Part shown: positions 3,743 to 62,880 of the stretch, one piece after another
Position numbering within the stretch: position 1 is the stretch's first letter
Layout of the letters: each line of letters starts with the position of its first letter
Source of the DNA: Octopus vulgaris
Taxonomy: Eukaryota
Direction: 5' to 3'
Length of the DNA: 64,000 bases
NCBI GenBank assembly: GCA_951406725.2
Contig: OX597820.1
Coordinates: forward strand, 125,612,001-125,676,000
Notes under the pieces: model-generated
The model's database searches: none
Seen by the model: only the letters and a program-made list of their open reading frames with translations
Told to the model about the DNA's origin: nothing
Translations under genes and position numbers: made by a program

Positions 3743-4394
3743 AATATATATATGTGTGTGTGTGTGTGTGCGGGCGTGTGTGTGTGTGTGTGATATTCGC
3801 GGTAGGGATTAAGATACTTCTGACTCATAATTGAAGTATACTGTATGTGTCTTGAGACTATAATTCTATCTATACGAAGAAGACATCTATTCCATTTATA
3901 TTGCTTATGTATGATTCATACAATTGGTACACCGGAGACCAATATTCACATCTGTGGATAGGATCATCAAATTTCACACATAGAATATACGTTTATAGTA
4001 CTTAGAATTATAATTTAAAATTAAGGTAGATGTTACATTAATTTCGATGCTTCTAATGAAATGGATATTTGCCCAAATGCCTTTAGCATCTTGCAGTCTT
4101 CACTACTCGAATTCAAATTGTGTCTATCTTTTACATGTTAACATAATTTATGTAAAGGTAAAATGTGATCGGAGCTATCTCTTCAAATGGTTATGGATTG
4201 GTGACATCTTTTCTGGGGATGGGGTTTTACGAATGATTTTATCATTACAAAATCACCACCGAATGATGAAACTAGAAAGCACGGCAAACTAGAGCAGCGA
4301 TGAGACATCAACTGAGTAAGCTCAAATATAATGGTTTAAAATAGACACTTGGTGCTTTTACTCGCATAGATTATAAAGACATCTATGTACCTAT

Positions 4395-16142: not shown

Positions 16143-16932
16143 GTGTATTACCTTGCTTTGCTCTCCTGCATTGTTTAACTGCCACCGCGCAGGATCAGAT
16201 CCATGACGGATTTGTGTGATCTTTAGGTGATCTTATCAACAGCAGAATCGATATTGGAGATCGTTATTGGCAAGGCCCCAAAATACGCGAGCCTTGTAAA
16301 TATATAAACATACATACATGCATACACAATCACACGCACAGACACACACACTTATACATACACAATTATGTATCTGTACATATATGCACGTATCTATACG
16401 TGTGAATGTATGTATATGTATGTGTGTGCGTGCGTGTGTCTGTTTGTATGTGTGGATCTGTACGTGTCTGTGCGTTTGTGTGACGTCTGTTAAATTATGC
16501 AATAAATGTGCAATTGTGTGTAAGGAAGCGTGATTTACCATTTCTACAATAATGGTATATTATGGAGGGCTTTCCATATGCAATTTTGTATCTCCTATCA
16601 TTAATGCAAAGTATTATAGACATTCATATATATATATATACATTCTTCAAACCTCAAACATATACATAAAAAACATGCATCTGTCAATCAATCGATTTCT
16701 CTATATCGGTACACATACACACTGAAAAATGTACATTCGTATATGTATGTATGCATGAATGTATATAAGGTAATGAGCAAATGCAAGCAAAAGACAAAAC
16801 CAGATGTTTATGTTTTCTCAACGTTATTAGTGCAAGCCTTGAAAGGTAGGAAGTCAATTACATACTTGGATGTGAATGCATGTGTGTGCGTATGTGTGTG
16901 TATGGATAAGTATACATACATACAAATAGGTA

Positions 16933-16933
16933 A

Positions 16934-16976
<43 letters not shown>

Positions 16977-17072
16977 GATAGACAGGTAAGTAGATAGATA
17001 AATAGATAAATAGATAGCTAGATAGGTAGATAGCTAGATAGATAGATTGATAGGTAGATAGATAGATAGATA
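16933..17072. repeat. (GATA)n array, left of Tx1
   Basis: Directly visible. Confidence 0.95.
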
Positions 17073-19018
17073 AGTTTCTTTATTGGCCACACAGGGCTGC
17101 ACACAGATGGGACCAGTTACAAGGTAGAGCTTTTCTTTTGGGGGATGAAAAAAAGGGGATGGCGTAGGTTTTCGATCAAGAGGGATCGTAAAAGGGAAGA
17201 AAAGAACAAAAAAAAAAAAAATTTATTAAAAAAAATAGAATAAAAAAATAAAAAGAATAAAAGAAAAAAAGAAAGGGAAAGGAACAAAAGAAAAGAGAAA
17301 TGAAAAAAGAAGAAAAAGGGAGAAAAAAAGGGGAAAAGGAAAAAAAAAAGGAACGATCAATACGGATCGTGTATCACAGTGTTATGATATATGGTGTAAA
17401 GGGGAAAGCAAGTAAGGTTTATCCGTGGGAAGAAAAGCCTACGAAAAAGACCACGGTAAACTTGGTCAATATTGTTATATGTTACCACATTTGTTTGCAA
17501 GCGGGTAACCCTCTGTTTTCAATTTCTGGGTTCATAGGATTATGCTCAAGGTGGCTTCGTCATTCATACGTGCCATCCTTGCTACATTCACCCATCTTTT
17601 TTTAAAACATTCGCTAGACAAAACTTGCCTCTCTACTCTCACTATCCTTTTCAAGTGGTACTTGAAGAAGTTGATGAGAGATTGACCAGAGAGGAAATTG
17701 TTTGTCTCCAATCCTTTCAGACGCGTCCACCAGATACATTCTTTCACCATAGCCACAAGGATGATGAAAATAGCTCTTCCTTCCCGTTTGAAGGAAGGAG
17801 GCGTGACAATATTGACGATAGACTCAGCTGATAAACCGACTCGTCCCACATGTGACAGCAGTTGTTCGACACAAGCCCACAGGTCGGAAATTGTTGGACA
17901 CTGCACGAACGCGTGCCGAATGGTTTCGTCGCTCTGACCGCATCTCGGGCAGGTCGGCCCCGTGTTTCTCGAGCCGTGTCTGTAGAGCTTATCCCGAACG
18001 GGTAGCGCTTCTCGGTAACACTGCCAGGCCAGGGATCTCTGGACGTTGTCCATGGGCCCTGGCCCGAAAGTCGTCCTGAACAGGCGGGTCAGGTACTCCT
18101 CGTCGACGTACAGGTTCGCCCCGAGCTCGTCGTCGTACCTCCCCTCCACTAATCCCCTATAGAATGCTTTGGTTGTGTTGAAGTCACTCAAGGTCGACCC
18201 AGGACGGCAGAGTTGCTTAAGAGCAACGCGACACTCGTGGTGCCATTCGCCCTTCCTCGGCCTCTTTTTGATCCACGACTGCAGTTCGGTCATGGAGACG
18301 AGCTGCGGGAAAGCGTGCCTCACAAACGGCGACCACACCTGTTCACCGTCGTCTACATAGAGCCAGAGATGTCGCAGTCTCAGCGCGTGTCTGCGCATCA
18401 TCAACCACGGCATGCCCAGCCCTCCTTTTAACGGGTGTTGACAGCAAATGGATCGCCTGACCATCGGGACGCATCCTTTCCACAAGAAGCGAAAGAGAAT
18501 ACGTTGTAGTTTGGTGATGGTAGGGTCGGGACAAGGTACGACGGTCAGGCGGTAGTAGATGACGGACGCAATGTACGTGTTCGCCACCTCCGCCCGACCT
18601 TTTAGGGACAGTTTCCTCTCGGCCCATTGCCGGGCGAGAGTGACCACCCTTCTCGTTATCTCGTTCCAGTTCTTCTCCACTTGGAGGTCCGGACCAAACC
18701 AGACCCCGAGCAACTGAACCGGGCCGTCGGTCCAGCGTCCCACGACGGAGGCGCTGGTGGACGCCATGGGCTTGCTTCTCCAGGTGCCTAGTCGCAAGCC
18801 CACTGACTTTTCTCGGTTGATTTTCGCTCCTGTCACCGCTTCGTAGTTTTTCAGTGCCTCGCCGACCTGCTCGATGTGCTCGTTGCTAGATACTATGACG
18901 GTGACGTCGTCCGCGTATGCAGACACGCTCGTCCCGCATCCCAGTTCTCGCGGGATGCCCCTCAAAGTTGCCAGCTTCCGCAATAATGGCTCGAGAGTCA
19001 ATACGTATAGAAGCGACG

Positions 19019-19020
<2 letters not shown>
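17073..19020 (-). mobile_element. Young 5'-truncated Tx1/L1-clade non-LTR retrotransposon inside a (GATA)n array
   Basis: Uninterrupted ORF2 segment, pyrimidine-rich 3'UTR on the element strand, and 3' end ...ccaataaagaaactta joined to (tcta)n. GC content is visibly higher than the flanks. Confidence 0.93.
17532..19020 (-). CDS. Tx1/L1 ORF2 fragment: RT motifs through C-terminal zf-RVT/CCHC
   Basis: SSLLYVLTLEPLLRKL, SAYADDVTV, LLGVWFG, LSLKGRA, GGLGMP, CPRC..ETIRHAFVQC. The ORF-track N-terminus (19021-19148) is GATA-repeat and flank read-through. Confidence 0.9.

Positions 19021-19094
<74 letters not shown>
19019..19094. repeat. Pure (GATA)n array, right of Tx1
   Basis: Directly visible. 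Confidence 0.95.
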
Positions 19095-19095
<1 letters not shown>

Positions 19096-19613
19096 CGTTC
19101 ACTTTTTACTATATTCAGTATAGAAAATAAATATGAAATGTTTAACACTAGCTATATAGAATAACTTACTGCCGTAACCGTGTACACTTTGAAGGAGAAC
19201 GGAACTACCTTCCTTAATCCGCGGCAACGAACTCATAATCCCGACGTCTGTCCACTGAAATTACTTTCCAATTTGAATGCCGTCTTATGTCGTGAGAAAC
19301 TCAATGGATGGTTGAAAAATAATTCACAATAAACGTCTTCAAGAGAAGCTTAACTCATAAAATTATTACGCAATCGTTCCTAATACTTCTTCATAGTTTA
19401 CTATGCTCTTGTCTGGCTAACACAGAAATGTATCTAATACGCGGGGAAAAAGTAAATCAATGACAAAATAATAAAGACAAACGCTTATGAGTGAGCCGCT
19501 AGCAACATAGTTATTATGTTCTTGTAAAAACGTATCCGACTTGATGTTACCGACTTGAAGATATTGAACACGGACTCAACTGATTTAAACTAAAAAAAAA
19601 AATATTTAATATT

Positions 19614-19836
19614 TATTCCTTTATTGTCCACAAGGGGCTAAACATAGAGGGGACAAACGAGGACAGACAAACGGATTGAGTCGATTATATCGACCCCAGT
19701 GCGTAACTGGTACTTATTTAATTGACTCCGAAAGGATGAAATGCAAAGTCGACCTCGGTGGAATTCGAACTAGAGAACGTAACGGCAGACGGAAGCGTCT
19801 CGCCCGGCGTGCTAACGTTTCTGCCAGCTCGCCGCC
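19614..19836 (-). mobile_element. Nin-type tRNA SINE (tail variant A), second copy
   Basis: Reverse complement of 9118-9348 with a small internal deletion. Confidence 0.9.
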
Positions 19837-21310: not shown

Positions 21311-24300
21311 TATTGATGCCTTTGAAAATACTATAATATTGAAAAGTATAAACACCTTGTCTAAAATAATCGAACGGAATTTTTTCAGATGCCGACAATT
21401 TCGCCGGTAACTATGGCATATTTCAAAACCAACAAGATGACTGAATACAGCTTTACTGAATACATATATATAACGCCACCTTTCTTTTTACACAAATAAA
21501 TCTTTCAAGATCACTAACATTTTTAATGAGCTATTTACATCTTATAAATATTCATGCATCACCACTTTCTACAACTTTTGCTATATAAGACATTATAACG
21601 CCCTCAGAAGACTCGATAAAAATTGACATGACCACCTTCGTTATTTATTTTGGCGCCAAATGTCTCCTTCGGGCTGCTAAGGTCCTTCAGTCTAACATCC
21701 TCTCCCAGGTTGTAATATAATACATTATCTAATAAACTTGTAAGCGTATATGTACTGGCAATGCATATTCTCAGCTACTTATATGGAAAAACATAACATG
21801 TTGTGTACAATATCAACATTGGAAGAATATATAGTTATACTGCCAGGAGAATTGTTACAAGCAAAGTAGATTGAGGATATTACAATGTCAGAAGTAGAAT
21901 CATGCATAAATGACAGTTAGTGTTCATTTTACTTTGACAATTTACAATATCTTAAATTTTAAGGCCTGTTAACTTGGAACGTTTGTGATGTTTTTGATGT
22001 TTCCTTCAATTCAACCCCACAGCACACACTCACACTTACACACATCCTTACCTTCAAGTGCTTGTACTTCTACATTTCGGGAACTTTTAATTAAATGAGA
22101 TCAATCGACCTGACATGATCCTACGTAGTTATACCCTTTTGTAAAGACCTGTTTTATTTTCTCTTCTTTCTCCGTTGCTCTCCTCACAATGCCTTCTCAT
22201 TCTTCACTTGCTTCATTTGACCTCATAATCACTAACCCCTTTTCCTATCAACTGGGATGACTCCATGAAGAATTTATTCACGCTAAATTCATTTCTTCAC
22301 TCAATATCCTTTTCCTACGCTTCTCACTCTCTCTTGTTGAACTTCTTTTTTAACAATTCTACCACTCCACATTTTTTTTCATTCCTTATACTTTGTACGC
22401 CCCTATTATCCGTTTCTATAATCTTGCTTTCCGGTGAAATCCGGTAAATCATCGAATTTTTCATTCCTCGCAACAATTCAACTCACTGTAATCTATTTTT
22501 TCTAAGACCTTTCACGGCTTACCTTTCGCCAACGCACAAATCTACAAGCCTTCATAAATCCTGGCTTTGATCACAATTGCCGCAGATATTATATAATTAT
22601 AAGATTTCATTCTGTTTCAACTCAGATATCTCGGCGCCTAACAATATACGTTTTGAGTGTTTGTTTAGTTGTTTCTTCAAGAAAATAATACATATCCCTG
22701 CAATAAGTGTATTTTATTAACATTTGTAAATCCAATATCGAAGTATTTCTCATTTCGACATAACAAAACTAAAGCTCGTAAATATTGTAAACCAAAAACA
22801 AATATGTTCATATCATATTTAACTTACACTACTATCTAATATATAAGAAACCCCAGTTGTTGTTTGTAAGGATGGAACATTGACTTGAAAGGCGCTGATA
22901 TTCTTATTTCGAACAGAATTATCTTTAATTCTGTAGGCCTAAAAGATGTACGATTTTTCCTGCATTTTCGCTTTCATGCTTTATGAGTTGAGAACAGAAT
23001 ATAGGAACAGGGAGTAATATTGGCTTCCACACTTGAACAATAATTTTCCAAATCTTGTTATAAATTGTGTACTCTTTAATGTTTTTAGATATCCAGTATA
23101 AACATGTCCAATAAGATTGAATTTGTGAAAGGCATTTCCTGAACAAATCTTGCATTCTGCTTCAAAATATGATATGTTTCTTTGAATTCCGTTTACATCG
23201 TATACTTTTACCTGTATTATAATCTAAGTGATCGCTGGAATTGTCAATGAAGTGTAATAGCAAGCATGTAGTTTGGGAAATTGTATCCCAATTTAGTATT
23301 GTTGTATGTGAAGAAATATTTACAGATTCTGAAGTCAATAAACTTGACTATACCCACACATATTATTGTACCTCCTCCAACAAGTGAAAAATGAAATAGT
23401 TAGATGAGTTCCGTGGTCTTTGCATGAGAGGAATAAAAGCAATTGAAACATAATATTGAAATACGCATAATCATGTGACTTTGAATTCGCACTAACTCGA
23501 TAATTAAGTTCTAGTGCGCAAATCAGGCCTTCTAATGAATCGCCTTGTGATTGAAAGTGTTAAACAGAAACTGTGCAGAAGCTCATAGCATACTCTGTAC
23601 GCGTGTGTGTGTTTATATGTGTTTGTATGTGTGTGTGTGTAGAATTGATGGGTGTGCGCGTGTACATGTATGTATACTTTCGCAAGTACATGTGTTGCAG
23701 TGTGTGTGTGTGTTTGTGTGTGTGTGTGTAAACCTGTCCTTTTACTTAATATACAGCTCTCAAAATTATCTACGAGTTTACGTTGTGCTTCTGATTGAAT
23801 CACTTGCTTTTAGATATTCGAGCGTATTATTATTATTTTTTTTTTATTTCTGTTGATTCTCCTTTGAAGCGTGTAGGATAAAGAACTATGTCATTTTGTT
23901 AATCATAATTGCTCCTCCAGTTCGACCTCTTTCACGCATTCTCTCTCTCTTTCTTTCTCTCTCTCTCTATCTCTCTATCTATCTATCTCTCTATCTATCT
24001 ATCTATCTATCTATCAATCTATTTATCTCTCACGCTCTCTCCCTCTCTCTGTCTCTCTCTCTCGCTTCTTCTCGCTTTTCTCCGCCTTCGGTGCCACTTT
24101 TCCTAAATTCATATTATCTTCCTAACTTGAACCCAGAATATACTCATCCTTAGAGTAACATGCAAACTTTAGTTAAAATAAAGGAAAGCGAAAACTGACA
24201 TCGATATATGCGAGTTAGTCTCAATTTTCAAGCTTTTGCTAATAGTTAAATGTGGCCATGCAGACACCAACATACGCAGATATCATCGAAAACACGCTCC

Positions 24301-24488: not shown

Positions 24489-25150
<662 letters not shown>

Positions 25151-26432
25151 AGTTAGAAATATTGATACAGAGATAGATTGCAATTTTATTCTATTTTTAG
25201 AAATCGATGCTCAGAGCGAAGGGCTACATTAGAAATAACAACATATACTCACCTATGAACACTGATCTAATAACACTTTCACGTAAAATCACACACATGT
25301 TTGTGTTTGGTGTGTATGTGTGTGTGAATCTGTGCGGTTGCGTGCTTGCTTGTGATAGTGTTTGTGTGTGTATGTGTGTGTGGTTGGGCGTTTGCGTAGG
25401 GGTGGTTGTGTTGCGTTTGTGTGTATGTATGGACACACATATGTGTGTATGTATGTGAGTGGTGTGTTAATATGCGTATGTACGTTCATTTAGAAAAATC
25501 ATTAAATAGCCGCTATTATATTTCTCAAGGGATGAAATAAACAGATAACTGTCTTTACTGTGTAGTATTCCTATCTTCAAAGAACAATAACATAAAGGAG
25601 ATCAGCCACATATTTTACAAAGGTAGCTTTTTTCGTCTCTGTGTACTTTTGAGTATACTATTAATGAAACAGTTCTTTCCTATTCAGCATTGAAACATTT
25701 TCACTGCAGTGTGTAGCATTTTGTGTTGTATAAAATCACTATTAGATAATTCCAACATATTTCTTAGTTCTAATCTTTTTCATTGTCTGTGTTTCTCTGA
25801 GTGTGTATTTCGAAAAGATTAATTTCCAACAAGCATATCCCCGGGATAATCAGGAATACATGCATATAATAATCTCTTTTGCTAAGCGTTTGAATATGTA
25901 CGTAAATTGTTCAAATTACTCATTTAGAGAGTTTCTTTAGACTTTTGTGTTCCACCGATTTCACTTTTCCATAAACCTAAGCCTTCTAATGACCATAGCA
26001 ATAATATTGCCATACGTAGAAAACATGTAGAATTCTTCTGGAGATCATCTGAGCACAGGAACGGCGGAATGATTAATATACACTGTTAGAAACTAAAGCA
26101 AATTATGTACCGCTGTTCGAGTTGAAAAGTAAAATTAGAACTGTATTTATGAAGAAATAGTGCGCTGAGTATAGTTTTTCTTTCTTGTGATGGCAGTTAC
26201 TTCTACCGGGTAACTTTGTTATATAGAACGTAAGCGTTGAGAACACTATATAGTACTAAGCATTTCAAGAAAGTGTGTACCAGCTAAGTTAGTCGTTCTG
26301 GGTGATTGCAAGTAACTTCACAGTGTATATGCACACTCACACCCAACCACACACAAACACGTAATAAATAGATAGATATGTAGGTAGGTAAATAGTTAGA
26401 GAGATAGAGAGACAGACAGATAGGTAAGGAGG

Positions 26433-26496
<64 letters not shown>

Positions 26497-58449: not shown

Positions 58450-60860
58450 TACAGGAACAACAAACATGAAAGCTACACGAAAATATTATACTCTCCAGCC
58501 AGCACAACAGTGTTTTCTTCCTCCGGCGCAAGACATAACAGACAACACTTACGTCGCTGCCTTTGTTAATATTGTCCAGTGAATGCAAGAAGAAATCACT
58601 TTCCCAGTGGACAAATTAAAGCAGGCGAAACATGTTGACGAAATAAGGAAGGCAGATTAATTTAACAATCACGACCTCCTTTCAGCAAGAGACAAATGAA
58701 AATATGATTATCACAGGACAATTAGTTTGAAAACACAGAAATTAGAACAGGCGACACAAAATAACATAGAAAATGCCTACAATCTGTCTTTAATATTAAA
58801 GGCAAGTAGCTAAGATAAGAAATTATGGTAAGTTAGAGGTGAGATTCCCTACGCTGAAAAATGTAGAATTGAAGTTCATACCTGACTACCATGGTCGAAA
58901 GTTTTCAAAATCATAATACGGGGCATTACCATAGAATTCACTATTCGCTCTTTAGTGGCATTGGTCCCCTTCGATAGAAAAAAGAAGGTATCATTCTGTA
59001 AATACAAAGGCTTCAGAAACAAAGAGGTCAGGTCAAGGCTTAGAATTACTCATGTAGAGATGATATCAGAGCTAATCAATCAACTAGATATCTCTGATCT
59101 ATATGTGGTCGTTGAGGGCAGAAAACCGATGTGTCACTTACGTGGTGACACAAATCAGCTAAATATGTTTTGCCCAAAACAAAGAAAAGAATAAAAGTAA
59201 CAAGTCCACCAATTCTGTCAAATCTAGTATCATACCAACAGCAATACAATAGGAATCAGGAAGAACCACAACGACAGAATGCAGCTACAGCAACAACAGT
59301 AACTGCAACACTGATTTCAGCAGGCACCAAATCAACAGCAACAATGTCACAAAACGTTGGAAGCAGCAGCAACGAAAACGATAAAAGAAACGCAGCCAAC
59401 AATATCAACAACTGAAAATCCCCAAGCTATAACCGTAAGACAAAATAGAAATGACCATCATGACATTCCCGCCCCTTCACGAATGGGACCCCTTAGACAT
59501 ATTGAGTGGAGAAGTTGACAATGAAGAATGGCAACAGAAAAAGAACAAAATAGTAAAACAGAGCAAATCTCACCAACACAAAACCGGGGACACCTCTGAA
59601 CAACAAACCAACACTACATTCAACAACAACTACGTTACCCTCACCATCACAACTAGCACCTCCATAGACACACAACTAGCACCTCCATAGACACAGTCAA
59701 CAGCACAAACACCGGAAAATACAATCATGATCACATATCGAAAACGACAAAAACCTCATAAATTTTACTGCCATTTACCAAAACAACAAAGCACTAATGG
59801 AACACAGGCACAATCTCAGACATCACTCAGAGTGATATCATCACACCAACAAACCTTAAATAAAAAATAATACAAATAACGTAAAACACATACAACACCA
59901 CAACAATGAAATACCCGGATGAGGAAGAGAATTTTAGAAAAAGCATTAACAAAAGATATCATAAAGAACGGCACGTGGAAACGCTCCCCTCTAACCAGAG
60001 GGACGGGACATTTATCACTTTCATTACACAGTCACTAAAAATAGCTCTTTTCCTCTATTCCTTCTTTCTCACTACATACAATGACCTGACCTGGTGTCGT
60101 TCTGGAAACAGGGCCACATCTCAGTGACTTCAAGTCAGTGAAGATGTCACGGCTCTGAGACCAGACTCTCCAATCGACAAGCATTAATGCCCATTTTCGC
60201 TTGATACGAGATTTACTTATATCTATGTCAATCGAAAAGGGGGGTTGCTGGAAATGTGTTTCTTCGGAAAGGTCATGATCGCAACATAAGGGCCACAATC
60301 CTGGACCCAGAAAATAAGTTGATAGGTCTGGATATGAACAATAGCGATAGTGGTGCTTTCAGACTGGTGGTTTTTATTCTCCAACAGGAGCAGAACAACC
60401 GGTGTTTTTTCAGATGTCTCGAGGTTTTCTGAGAACGTCTTGACAGGATTTCTGACGTGTTCCGACTGAATTTCCCAAATGTGCCAGTTTTGGGGATAGA
60501 TAAACAGCATCTAGTCATCAAGGTCGTATTTAGATACTTTCGCATGACAAACTTGGTTGACAGCCTTTTGGCAAATATATATCGCAAGTGGCAATAGAAC
60601 GGTAGAATTCCGAATTCTATGAGTCGAATAGCGTTGACATTGTTAAGAAAGAAACTAAACGAGAGCGATGAAATAGAAAAACTTTAGGCCCATAATGCTG
60701 TTGAATACAGATTTACAGATTTTAGAAAACGGGGAGGTAATAAGCTTTGCAAACCTATGCAGATATTTTGAAGTGTATGGCTTGTTCCGATTGGATTTCC
60801 AGAATGTGCCCAATGGGGATGGACGAACTGCATCTAGTCATCAAGGTCGTATTTAGATGG
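58450..60860 (+). mobile_element. Old, deleted Tx1/L1-clade LINE (ORF1 knuckle, APE and RT remnants)
   Basis: VVVEGRKPMCHLRGDTNQLNMFCP (decayed CCHC); SETRL and LDPENKLIGLD..FRLVVFYSP (APE); NGRIPNSM..LTLLRK..NFRPIMLLNTDLQIL (RT). Confidence 0.75.
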
Positions 60861-61339
60861 AGTAAATTGTAGATCAGTAGATGAGAATATGGATTTCCAC
60901 TTTTTAAATCGTTAGCTACACAGATCACATGAAATGCCTTCTACTGGAAGATGAACGCGTCACTCGCCGCGTACCAAACTTACAGAGACCAGATTAGAGT
61001 ATCAGTTAAGCGAGCATTGACGGGGTGGATTAGTATCTGCTTGGTTTAGTAAGGTTATAGCAATAGAAAGAAACAGAACAGATGGAAAGTTAGCTAGAAA
61101 TTTAGAAGAAACGCTTAAGAAACAAATCGCAACCGACGCGCTGGTGGGGTGAATGACCCAGGACCAGCTTTTCACCACTAAAGATGGAGGATGTCATGTG
61201 AGATCTAAGGAGTGAACTCTAAGAAAGGAGGGAACGAAATCTGCTCGACAGGCTCGAGTGACAGCGGTGCAAAGTGGAAACAAATACAGAATTCGGTCGT
61301 CGGTGGACCAACATGGGCGCACGGTACTCGAGCCCGAGC

Positions 61340-62880
61340 AGATGTGTGCGGCATTTTATCAGCCAGGCATAACGTGTACTTCCTGTTTCTATTGAAGTAC
61401 AGTTTACATTAATCCAGGGTCTTCCACTTTATGTTGTACTCGGTGATGCTTTCGTTCAAAGACCAAGGTGTTTGGCCAGGGTTTTGGCGTTTCATCTTTC
61501 CGGGATGTTAAAGGAGGATTTGTGGTTGCTAAAGCGGAGTCTTCAGTTGCTCTTACATAATTTCGTACATTTGTTTGCCCATTTAGTCCAGTGGCTATTA
61601 TGTCTACCTCATATACAACGGTCTCTTTGTTACAGTGGCCGTTCAGTGGACATGTGTTAACCCTACATAAGCATCTATTTGTACGGGGGAAGTGCTTATC
61701 AACTAAGCTGAGAAAAAACTTACTCGGATTTTAACATTTAAAGGGAAGGGCAGTGTGAACCAGAACACTTTCTGATGTCGCTTTCTGTTGGAGGGGTTAG
61801 GTTCTGGCGTATAGCAAATCCTATCCTAGAAACCGCTGGCAGCTGGAGCCTCATTGTAGTGCGAGAAGGAAGCATCAAAAATCCTTTTTCTGGAAGATAA
61901 GCCTGAGATTCTTCTGCTGGCGCCCTTTACCAGGTTCTTTAAAACTATGCCTGGGTAACAGGAACGTGTTTTAAGGTATCTCGTTTGGTTTCCTCAAGGG
62001 TCTATAGTCACCAAACTCAAAGTCCAGAATCACATGAAGGAAATCCAGCGTTTTCCGGTCGTTTTTTATCGTGACCGTTCTAAGCCTAGTGTGGCCGTTT
62101 GCTCCTCCTTTTGATATTGCCAGCGCGTCATCCCTGTAGAAGACCAACCTAGTTGAAGGGAAATATATTATTAACAACATGTAGGATGAAGAAACCGATA
62201 AGGACACACACGACAGCATTGTCGAAAGTTCCCATTGCCACGTCGAAGCAGCCTTCTGGTAAGTTCATTTGGCCCAGGCTGACCACTTGCTGAAGAGTAG
62301 GTTCCTTCTGACATGCATGATAATGCATATGTCCTTGTGACTTACTTCATTGTAGGCCCTAGTGAAGGCCAGTACCGTAGAAAGGAGCTCCCTTGATATA
62401 GATGAGTAGAAATCCACTATATAATCTTATGTAAATCTAGTTCTACACCTTCCGTTATTGGTTTCAAATCATGTAATGGCCTCGTTAGTGTTACGCCATA
62501 GGACGATGTCAAAGGCGTTTCGTTTCTAACGCCGTTGCTGATCTACCTGATAAGCCGTTTGCTAACCTGTCCGATTTTAGATTTCACAAGGTTTATCGGC
62601 CTGCATTTGGGGTTAGAGACGAAGTTGGGTTTATTATCTTTGATCATTGTGAAGGCGTCTTTCTTTGCAAGTATCTCTCCCCTATATCTATGGCCTCATG
62701 GTTGATACTGTGATAAATCCGAGGGGTATCCCTCCTGTATGTTAGGGTAATGCTGTTGTTAAGAATCTCTGCGAATGTGTTTTTGCTTACTCTATTAAAA
62801 CTTTCAGAATTATCAGAGAATAGAATGGTCTTATCTGAAGATCTAAGTCTACTGGAATCTGCTATGGGACGATTTTGTGC
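61340..62880 (-). mobile_element. Naiad-like Penelope element, decayed
   Basis: AFTMIKDNKPNFVSNPKCRPINL, FDVAMGTFD, FYRDDALAI, YRPLRKPNE, CRVNTCPLNGHCNKETVVYEV, TLCLADK. Confidence 0.85.

Follow-up and report, generated by a model that had tools for sequence, protein, structure and literature searches.

Does a LINE that sits in the middle of a (GATA)n microsatellite owe its position to chance, or does it belong to a family that inserts into this repeat? The question is raised by a copy at 17073..19021 on the minus strand of the window, a stretch of 64,000 nucleotides of Octopus vulgaris DNA that was analysed as a whole. The copy is flanked on both sides by GATA arrays, and the features of the locus are as follows, in window coordinates.

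16926..17072, no strand: imperfect (GATA)n array, period 4, 36.8 copies, 81% matches; the downstream half of the target, reading (TATC)n on the sense strand of the element
17073..19021, minus strand: 5'-truncated LINE copy of about 1.95 kb, the 3' third of the 6,074-bp element; it matches the full-length copy L088 from about position 4208
17073..17531, minus strand: 3' UTR of 459 nt with a U-rich tract (A-rich on the plus strand at 17200-17351) and the fixed terminus ...gaaacT
17079..17084, minus strand: AATAAA, 6 nt ahead of the repeat junction, with no poly(A) after it
17532..19021, minus strand: C-terminal part of ORF2, free of stops for 495 codons from 19019 up to the stop at 17532-17534
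17877..18035, minus strand: zf-RVT zinc-binding domain (PF13966), aa 329-381, E 2.2e-9
18705..19019, minus strand: C-terminal end of the reverse transcriptase domain (PF00078, RVT_1), aa 1-105, E 1.5e-7
19019..19021, minus strand: TCT microhomology at the 5' truncation, which fits the commonest junction phase (array ending in TATCT)
19019..19095, no strand: perfect (AGAT)19 array, the upstream half of the target

The original prediction, made from the letters of the window, placed both junctions in GATA arrays, and this was confirmed by the imperfect array on one side and the perfect one on the other. The 3' end of the window copy (sense ...gccAATAAAgaaacT) stops at 17073 and joins TATCTATC directly without poly(A), as had been read at first, and the ORF2 stretch of about 1.5 kb that had been described as free of stops was recovered as the 495 codons with their RVT_1 and zf-RVT matches. 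The microhomology at the truncation had been given as tctc. In sibling copies, the sequence spanning the truncation point is ...CCCCCTCTCGTCG, so that only TCT (3 nt) is shared between array and element. The element had also been called young, which holds for the recently active family but less well for the window copy, which is 96-97% identical to its best relatives and is therefore a moderately young member of an older subfamily ending gaaacT.

Elsewhere in the window, a degraded, distantly related element of the same LINE group was observed on the plus strand at about 59600-61400, with a 72% DNA match at 60584-60723 and with remnants of an ORF1 tail and of an endonuclease-like region recognized by eye. 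TATC/GATA arrays free of insertions were present at 23940-24063, 24756-25178, and 26364-26496, and perfect runs numbered 40 per 200 kb, so that the target is far from saturated. Contig depth was very high beside the element at 16400-16510, 16622-16843, and 19508-19700; these stretches are probably other high-copy repeats of a SINE-like kind.

The preference for (TATC)n proposed from this single copy was found throughout the genome. The 3' ends were counted by an exact 21-nt terminal motif, for which the reversed control gave 0, and 9,350 exact termini were obtained. The bases that came next were TATCT in 8,021 of them (86%), TATCTATCTATCT in 5,638, TAT[A/G/T]TAT in 253, and TATTATT in 19, and 14% of the ends had no TATCT after the terminus. 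Poly(A) was present at none of the 3' junctions examined. Repeat coverage in 20 evenly spread 10-kb stretches of the genome, which served as the background, was 2.45% for (TA)n, 1.08% for (AC)n, 0.86% for GATA, 0.67% for (CATA)n, and 0.49% for (TAA)n. (TA)n is three times commoner than GATA, yet it received less than 3% of the element 3' ends, and with (AC)n also commoner than GATA, the commonest repeats are thus avoided. The text of PMC4494074 recognizes such a preference when a single repeat type occurs in more than 20% of the flanks; the corresponding shares here were 86% of the 3' ends and 65-90% of the 5' junctions, in samples drawn from best-scoring or exact-motif lists in which old diverged copies are under-sampled. 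Our results showed that the octopus genome carries a large, recently active LINE family of the L1/Tx1 type that inserts mostly into (TATC)n/(GATA)n in one orientation. Two single observations are recorded here. The region C1:1-5.04 Mb held 55 element ends against about 17 expected from the genome mean, and at L159 (C1:10.528 Mb) the 3' end joined an array in the opposite (GATA) orientation.

Whether the repeat is a target or a tail of the element was judged at the 5' junctions. A junction was scored as a match when the 40 nt upstream contained at least 3 TATC units; counted on a single strand, this occurs at 0.54% of positions in the 20 evenly spread 10-kb stretches and at 0.56% of positions in the window. 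(TATC)n adjoined the 5' junction in 24 of the 29 best relatives of the window copy, and of the remaining five, two were inverted, one was rearranged, and two lay in compound arrays. In a young sample of 40 copies, taken at roughly even steps from 150 endonuclease matches, (TATC)n was present at the 5' junction in 36. The script-scored part of this sample gave 35/38 overall and 20/23 among truncated copies, with no GATA-orientation array at the 5' side in any of the 38; L103 (a miss) and L122 (a match), which the script dropped as duplicates, were read separately. The position-ordered sample, which was scored by eye and included old copies, consisted of 40 of 44 consecutive motif matches at C1 6.7-16 Mb (four were skipped, two of them inside loci already taken). 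In this sample, 26 copies adjoined (TATC)n, 7 had compound or nearby arrays, and 7 had no TATC array at the 5' side. The 5' flanks are therefore not random and the repeat is not confined to the 3' ends, since 36/40 and 26/40 stand against 0.54%, and in this respect the original prediction held.

The copies outside the preferred repeat were also informative. The off-target set of 36 loci (L246-L281) was selected for the lack of TATC at the 3' end. Several of these copies were flanked at both ends by (TA)n or (TTA)n, and L275 and L280 had clear duplications beginning TAT, of 13-17 bp and 13-16 bp, respectively. Duplications of about 6-9 bp were seen at L147 and L170, and an empty tandem duplicate beside L146 already holds TATCTATCT. 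Contigs of four public runs stop at the locus arrays, so that the filled and the empty states are both unbridged in them. Arrays at independent 5' truncations, together with off-target copies that lack TATC and in some cases carry duplications, show that the repeat is the target and not a tail; (TATC)n is there before the insertion, and the element has no obligatory tail. The preference is not absolute. Off-target insertions into (TA)n, (TATG)n, and (TTA)n mostly belonged to older copies (70-93% identity), a hint that subfamilies active earlier had a looser choice of site that depended on TAT.

An element-encoded (TATC)n tail, with the 5' arrays being assembly artefacts or the tails of neighbours, is very unlikely as an explanation. 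It could account for the copies that sit behind the 3' end of another copy (L060, L065, L084, L108) and for L181, where the 3' array is long but the 5' flank is a different minisatellite; most 5' arrays, however, run out into unique sequence, and the 3' runs of some copies are as short as TATCT or TATCTAT (L023, L024, L152, L170) or absent. Even harder to credit is that insertion was nearly random, and that selection merely retained the copies in arrays or the arrays expanded once the element was in place. Older copies (70-90% identity) were indeed more often without arrays or in (TA)n. Selection, however, would not explain why the copies share an orientation and a 3' phase or why they avoid (TA)n and (AC)n, the commoner arrays, and the youngest copies (98-99.7%) were the most specific, with long arrays already at many truncation points. 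Insertion into pre-existing (TATC)n remains the reading that we follow below.

A natural full-length copy, L088, was recovered, with a length of 6,074 bp and two ORFs. ORF1 is about 524 aa long and contains one CCHC knuckle, visible as C-X2-C-X4-H-X4-C, which the Pfam zf-CCHC model matched below its cut-off (E 0.27). ORF2 is intact with 1145 aa and consists of an N-terminal APE endonuclease, a central reverse transcriptase, and a C-terminal zinc domain (Pfam PF03372, PF00078, PF13966). The best solved relatives of the endonuclease were L1-EN and its loop variants (E 2e-9 to 3e-8), and the catalytic motifs are present; a single-sequence prediction of its fold reached a pLDDT of 34 and was unusable. 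By the APE-RT-zinc layout and these top structures, the element is an APE-type non-LTR retrotransposon of the L1/Tx1 group. A CCHC zinc knuckle in ORF1 is a feature of the Tx1 clade, and the domain layout makes membership in this clade probable.

Recent activity, which the original prediction had assumed, was evident in the protein and in the DNA. The 240-aa endonuclease was identical (100%) in all of the best 150 of 10,153 candidates, the full 1149-codon frame was kept in 28 of the first 50 endonuclease matches listed, and the youngest subfamily, which ends gaaacA, was mostly 98-99.7% identical to L088. The marks of retrotransposition were all present, namely the fixed 3' end, 5' truncation, 5' inversions (L004, L010, L166), and target duplications that vary from at most 5 bp to 13-17 bp. 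The closest named proteins among the matches listed came from Argonauta (69% over the RT region) and a cuttlefish (54%). An older TATC-targeting subfamily (L149, L150, L160) retained ORF2 at about 94%, with ORF1 and the 5' UTR far more diverged (59-78%), which suggests that its 5' half was replaced or is fast-evolving. A G directly before the element start was seen in 5 of 26 distinct full-length 5' junctions (L041, L047, L049, L050, L058) and is possibly a reverse-transcribed cap.

The geometry of the junctions was then compared between the two ends. The 3' junction had a single phase (TATC...). Among 63 truncated 5' junctions, 42 were clean, and in the remaining 21 the array was missing or the junction was rearranged or held extra bases. 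The phase in which the array ends in TATCT fitted 30 of the 42 clean junctions (null 40%, p 4e-5), the 15 junctions without microhomology were distributed 0/9/4/2 over the four phases (p 0.003), and microhomology was mildly raised (27/42 vs 43%, p 0.004), in tests of phase and microhomology that treat the copies as independent and use one reference copy. Target duplications were assessed in 93 copies, of which 45 were uninformative, 44 allowed less than 9 bp (some of them because the junction was rearranged or held extra bases), and 4 were marked as non-periodic, three of these being real with 9, 14, and 14 bp. A single fixed duplication length was ruled out, as many young copies allow at most 5-6 bp and others 9-17 bp. 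On the GATA strand, a nick at ATA/G and a nick at AT/A both fit the junctions, and the junction T may stem from the RNA or from the target.

The preference for the target, its orientation, the fixed phase at the 3' end, the varying duplications, and the intact copies were all observed. We infer insertion by target-primed reverse transcription, in which the predicted endonuclease is probably the main determinant of the target and short RNA-primer pairing a helper. By analogy with established LINE biology, the APE endonuclease would place its nick in the GATA strand at a constant phase, and reverse transcription would be primed from this nick at the fixed 3' end of the element. A few bases of pairing between RNA and primer probably help, which would explain the missing poly(A), and the second-strand cut would be looser, favouring the position after TATCT. 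Since repeat remains on either side of each insertion, the same arrays are hit more than once and head-to-tail clusters arise, as in the tandem cluster at L082-L085.

A second young family, which has 1145-aa frames, was found in the same genome in a search with an Argonauta protein. Its ORF2 is 72% identical to that of the TATC family (75% at the DNA level). It had 201 exact ends, 181 of them followed by RATTATT, and its 5' junctions showed (TTA)n in 16 of 20 copies (13 directly, 3 imperfect or close) over a background of 0.35%. Loci of this TTA family (L206-L245, e.g. C4:93.80-93.83 Mb, C47, C50) include head-to-tail arrays with a period of about 5.87 kb. Several older decayed relatives among the matches listed also end in (ATT)n. 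In the RT tree, the TATC clade and the TTA clade each had a support of 100, an older clade that includes five copies ending in ATT had 97, and the grouping of the TATC and TTA clades had 35; because the order of the clades is so weakly supported, TTA is rated only as the likely ancestral target. TAT is present at the 3' junction in both targets.

Between the two families, the endonuclease domains were 58-73% identical per 60-aa window, and three surface stretches outside the hairpin loop were clearly different. The hairpin loop itself differed by one residue (WSNRIGSSRSYLDR in the TATC family vs WTNRIGSSRSYLDR in the TTA family), although passages of PMC1950540 describe this loop as shaping nicking in L1-EN. 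Since the loop is near-identical despite the different targets, the contribution of the endonuclease must come from loops elsewhere or be less than was supposed.

This loop is also one of the points that speak for the RNA, rather than the endonuclease, picking the repeat, which we consider unlikely. A loosely specific enzyme would then nick near TAT/ATA, and only primers that pair with the RNA end would be used. The usual spacing from AAUAAA to the end of a transcript is 10-30 nt. With AATAAA 6 nt ahead of the junction, transcripts would be cut 10-30 nt past AAUAAA inside the array of the donor and end in a few UAUC (or AUU) units, and the target would be inherited through flanking DNA. The absence of poly(A) at every 3' junction examined agrees with this, as does the filled site of L146, which has one TATC unit more than a 9-bp duplication of the adjacent empty tandem duplicate would give; in addition, pairing between RNA and target is named as a possible further requirement in passages of PMC1950540. 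Pairing at the 3' end leaves the biased phase of the 5' junctions unexplained, however, and it sits poorly with the lack of a TATC unit in off-target copies from (TA)n, (TTA)n, or unique DNA (though these were selected so), with the differences elsewhere in the endonuclease domains, and with only 19 of 9,350 TATC-family ends lying in TTA. Contigs of four presumed RNA runs continued into GATA repeats, and no poly(T) loose end was present among the matches listed; contigs cannot show transcript ends. The stronger form, in which the identity of the target is written in an RNA 3' end copied from the flanking repeat of the donor and not in the endonuclease, so that a stray insertion could found a family with a new target, is doubtful. 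If true, it would account for two families that differ in target, TATC and TTA, yet have almost the same hairpin loop, and it would offer a programmable LINE. The endonuclease as main determinant, helped by pairing, is the reading that we prefer.

The targeting mechanism of microsatellite LINEs is "not well understood" in the words of a 2013 review (PMC3812793). Two young families with intact proteins, 72% identical and inserting into different repeats of one genome, would allow a direct test of target choice and switching. The octopus family is not a new category of element, and its value lies mainly in this TATC/TTA target-switch pair. With more than 9,000 copies, mostly inside GATA repeats, it also breaks up at least 9,000 GATA arrays, a point of importance for microsatellite markers and assembly in octopods.

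Among the protein matches listed, the named ones were unannotated proteins of Argonauta, Acanthosepion, Paramuricea, and Holothuria, and no entry named Kibi, Koshi, or Keno was among them. Dong belongs to the R4 clade and carries a restriction-like endonuclease. Its target is given as (TAA)n (PMC3812793), the same repeat class as that of the octopus TTA family, which would be a convergent use of one target; Dong-R4 is listed as active in an octopus in PMC13282606, where 13 recently active L1-Tx1 families of an octopus are also listed without their targets. The microsatellite targets of LINEs listed in PMC3812793 are ACAY, AC, TC, TTC, and TAA, the running text of PMC4494074 has no word starting with TATC or GATA, and no LINE targeting (TATC)n was found in the literature searched, whose reach did not extend to Repbase. 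The original prediction of a (TATC)n-specific family is supported. Tx1 families specific for the tetranucleotides (TTCC)n and (TTTC)n have, however, already been described in crocodilians, so that only the unit (TATC)n looks new.

Human L1 shares with the octopus element the APE-RT-zinc layout of ORF2, an endonuclease match (E 2e-8), 5' truncation, 5' inversion, and variable duplications. It differs in having a poly(A) tail and a weak preference for TTAAAA, as summarized in PMC3812793, and the octopus ORF1 has a CCHC knuckle. Waldo and Mino, which target (ACAY)n and (AC)n in the account of PMC3812793 and belong to the R1 clade by the title of its reference 54, are likewise APE-type LINEs on a tetra- or dinucleotide repeat; their clade and targets are different, and the octopus ORF2 has an L1-like endonuclease and zf-RVT. 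Closer in target class are the crocodilian families Tx1-1/5/6_Crp, Tx1-1_Gav, and Tx1-2/3/5/8_AMi, for which the text of PMC4494074 gives (TTCC)n or (TTTC)n. They share the preference for a tetranucleotide microsatellite with the octopus family, which has a different unit, is very young, and retains many intact frames. Kibi and Koshi, Tx1-clade LINEs of teleosts that target (TC)n and (TTC)n as described in PMC4494074 and PMC3812793, also are APE-type LINEs inside a microsatellite with a pyrimidine-rich sense strand. Likened to them by target and domain layout, the octopus family differs in its cephalopod host and its at least 9,350 copies; it works like Kibi and Koshi but is neither, since its target is (TATC)n and not (TC)n or (TTC)n.
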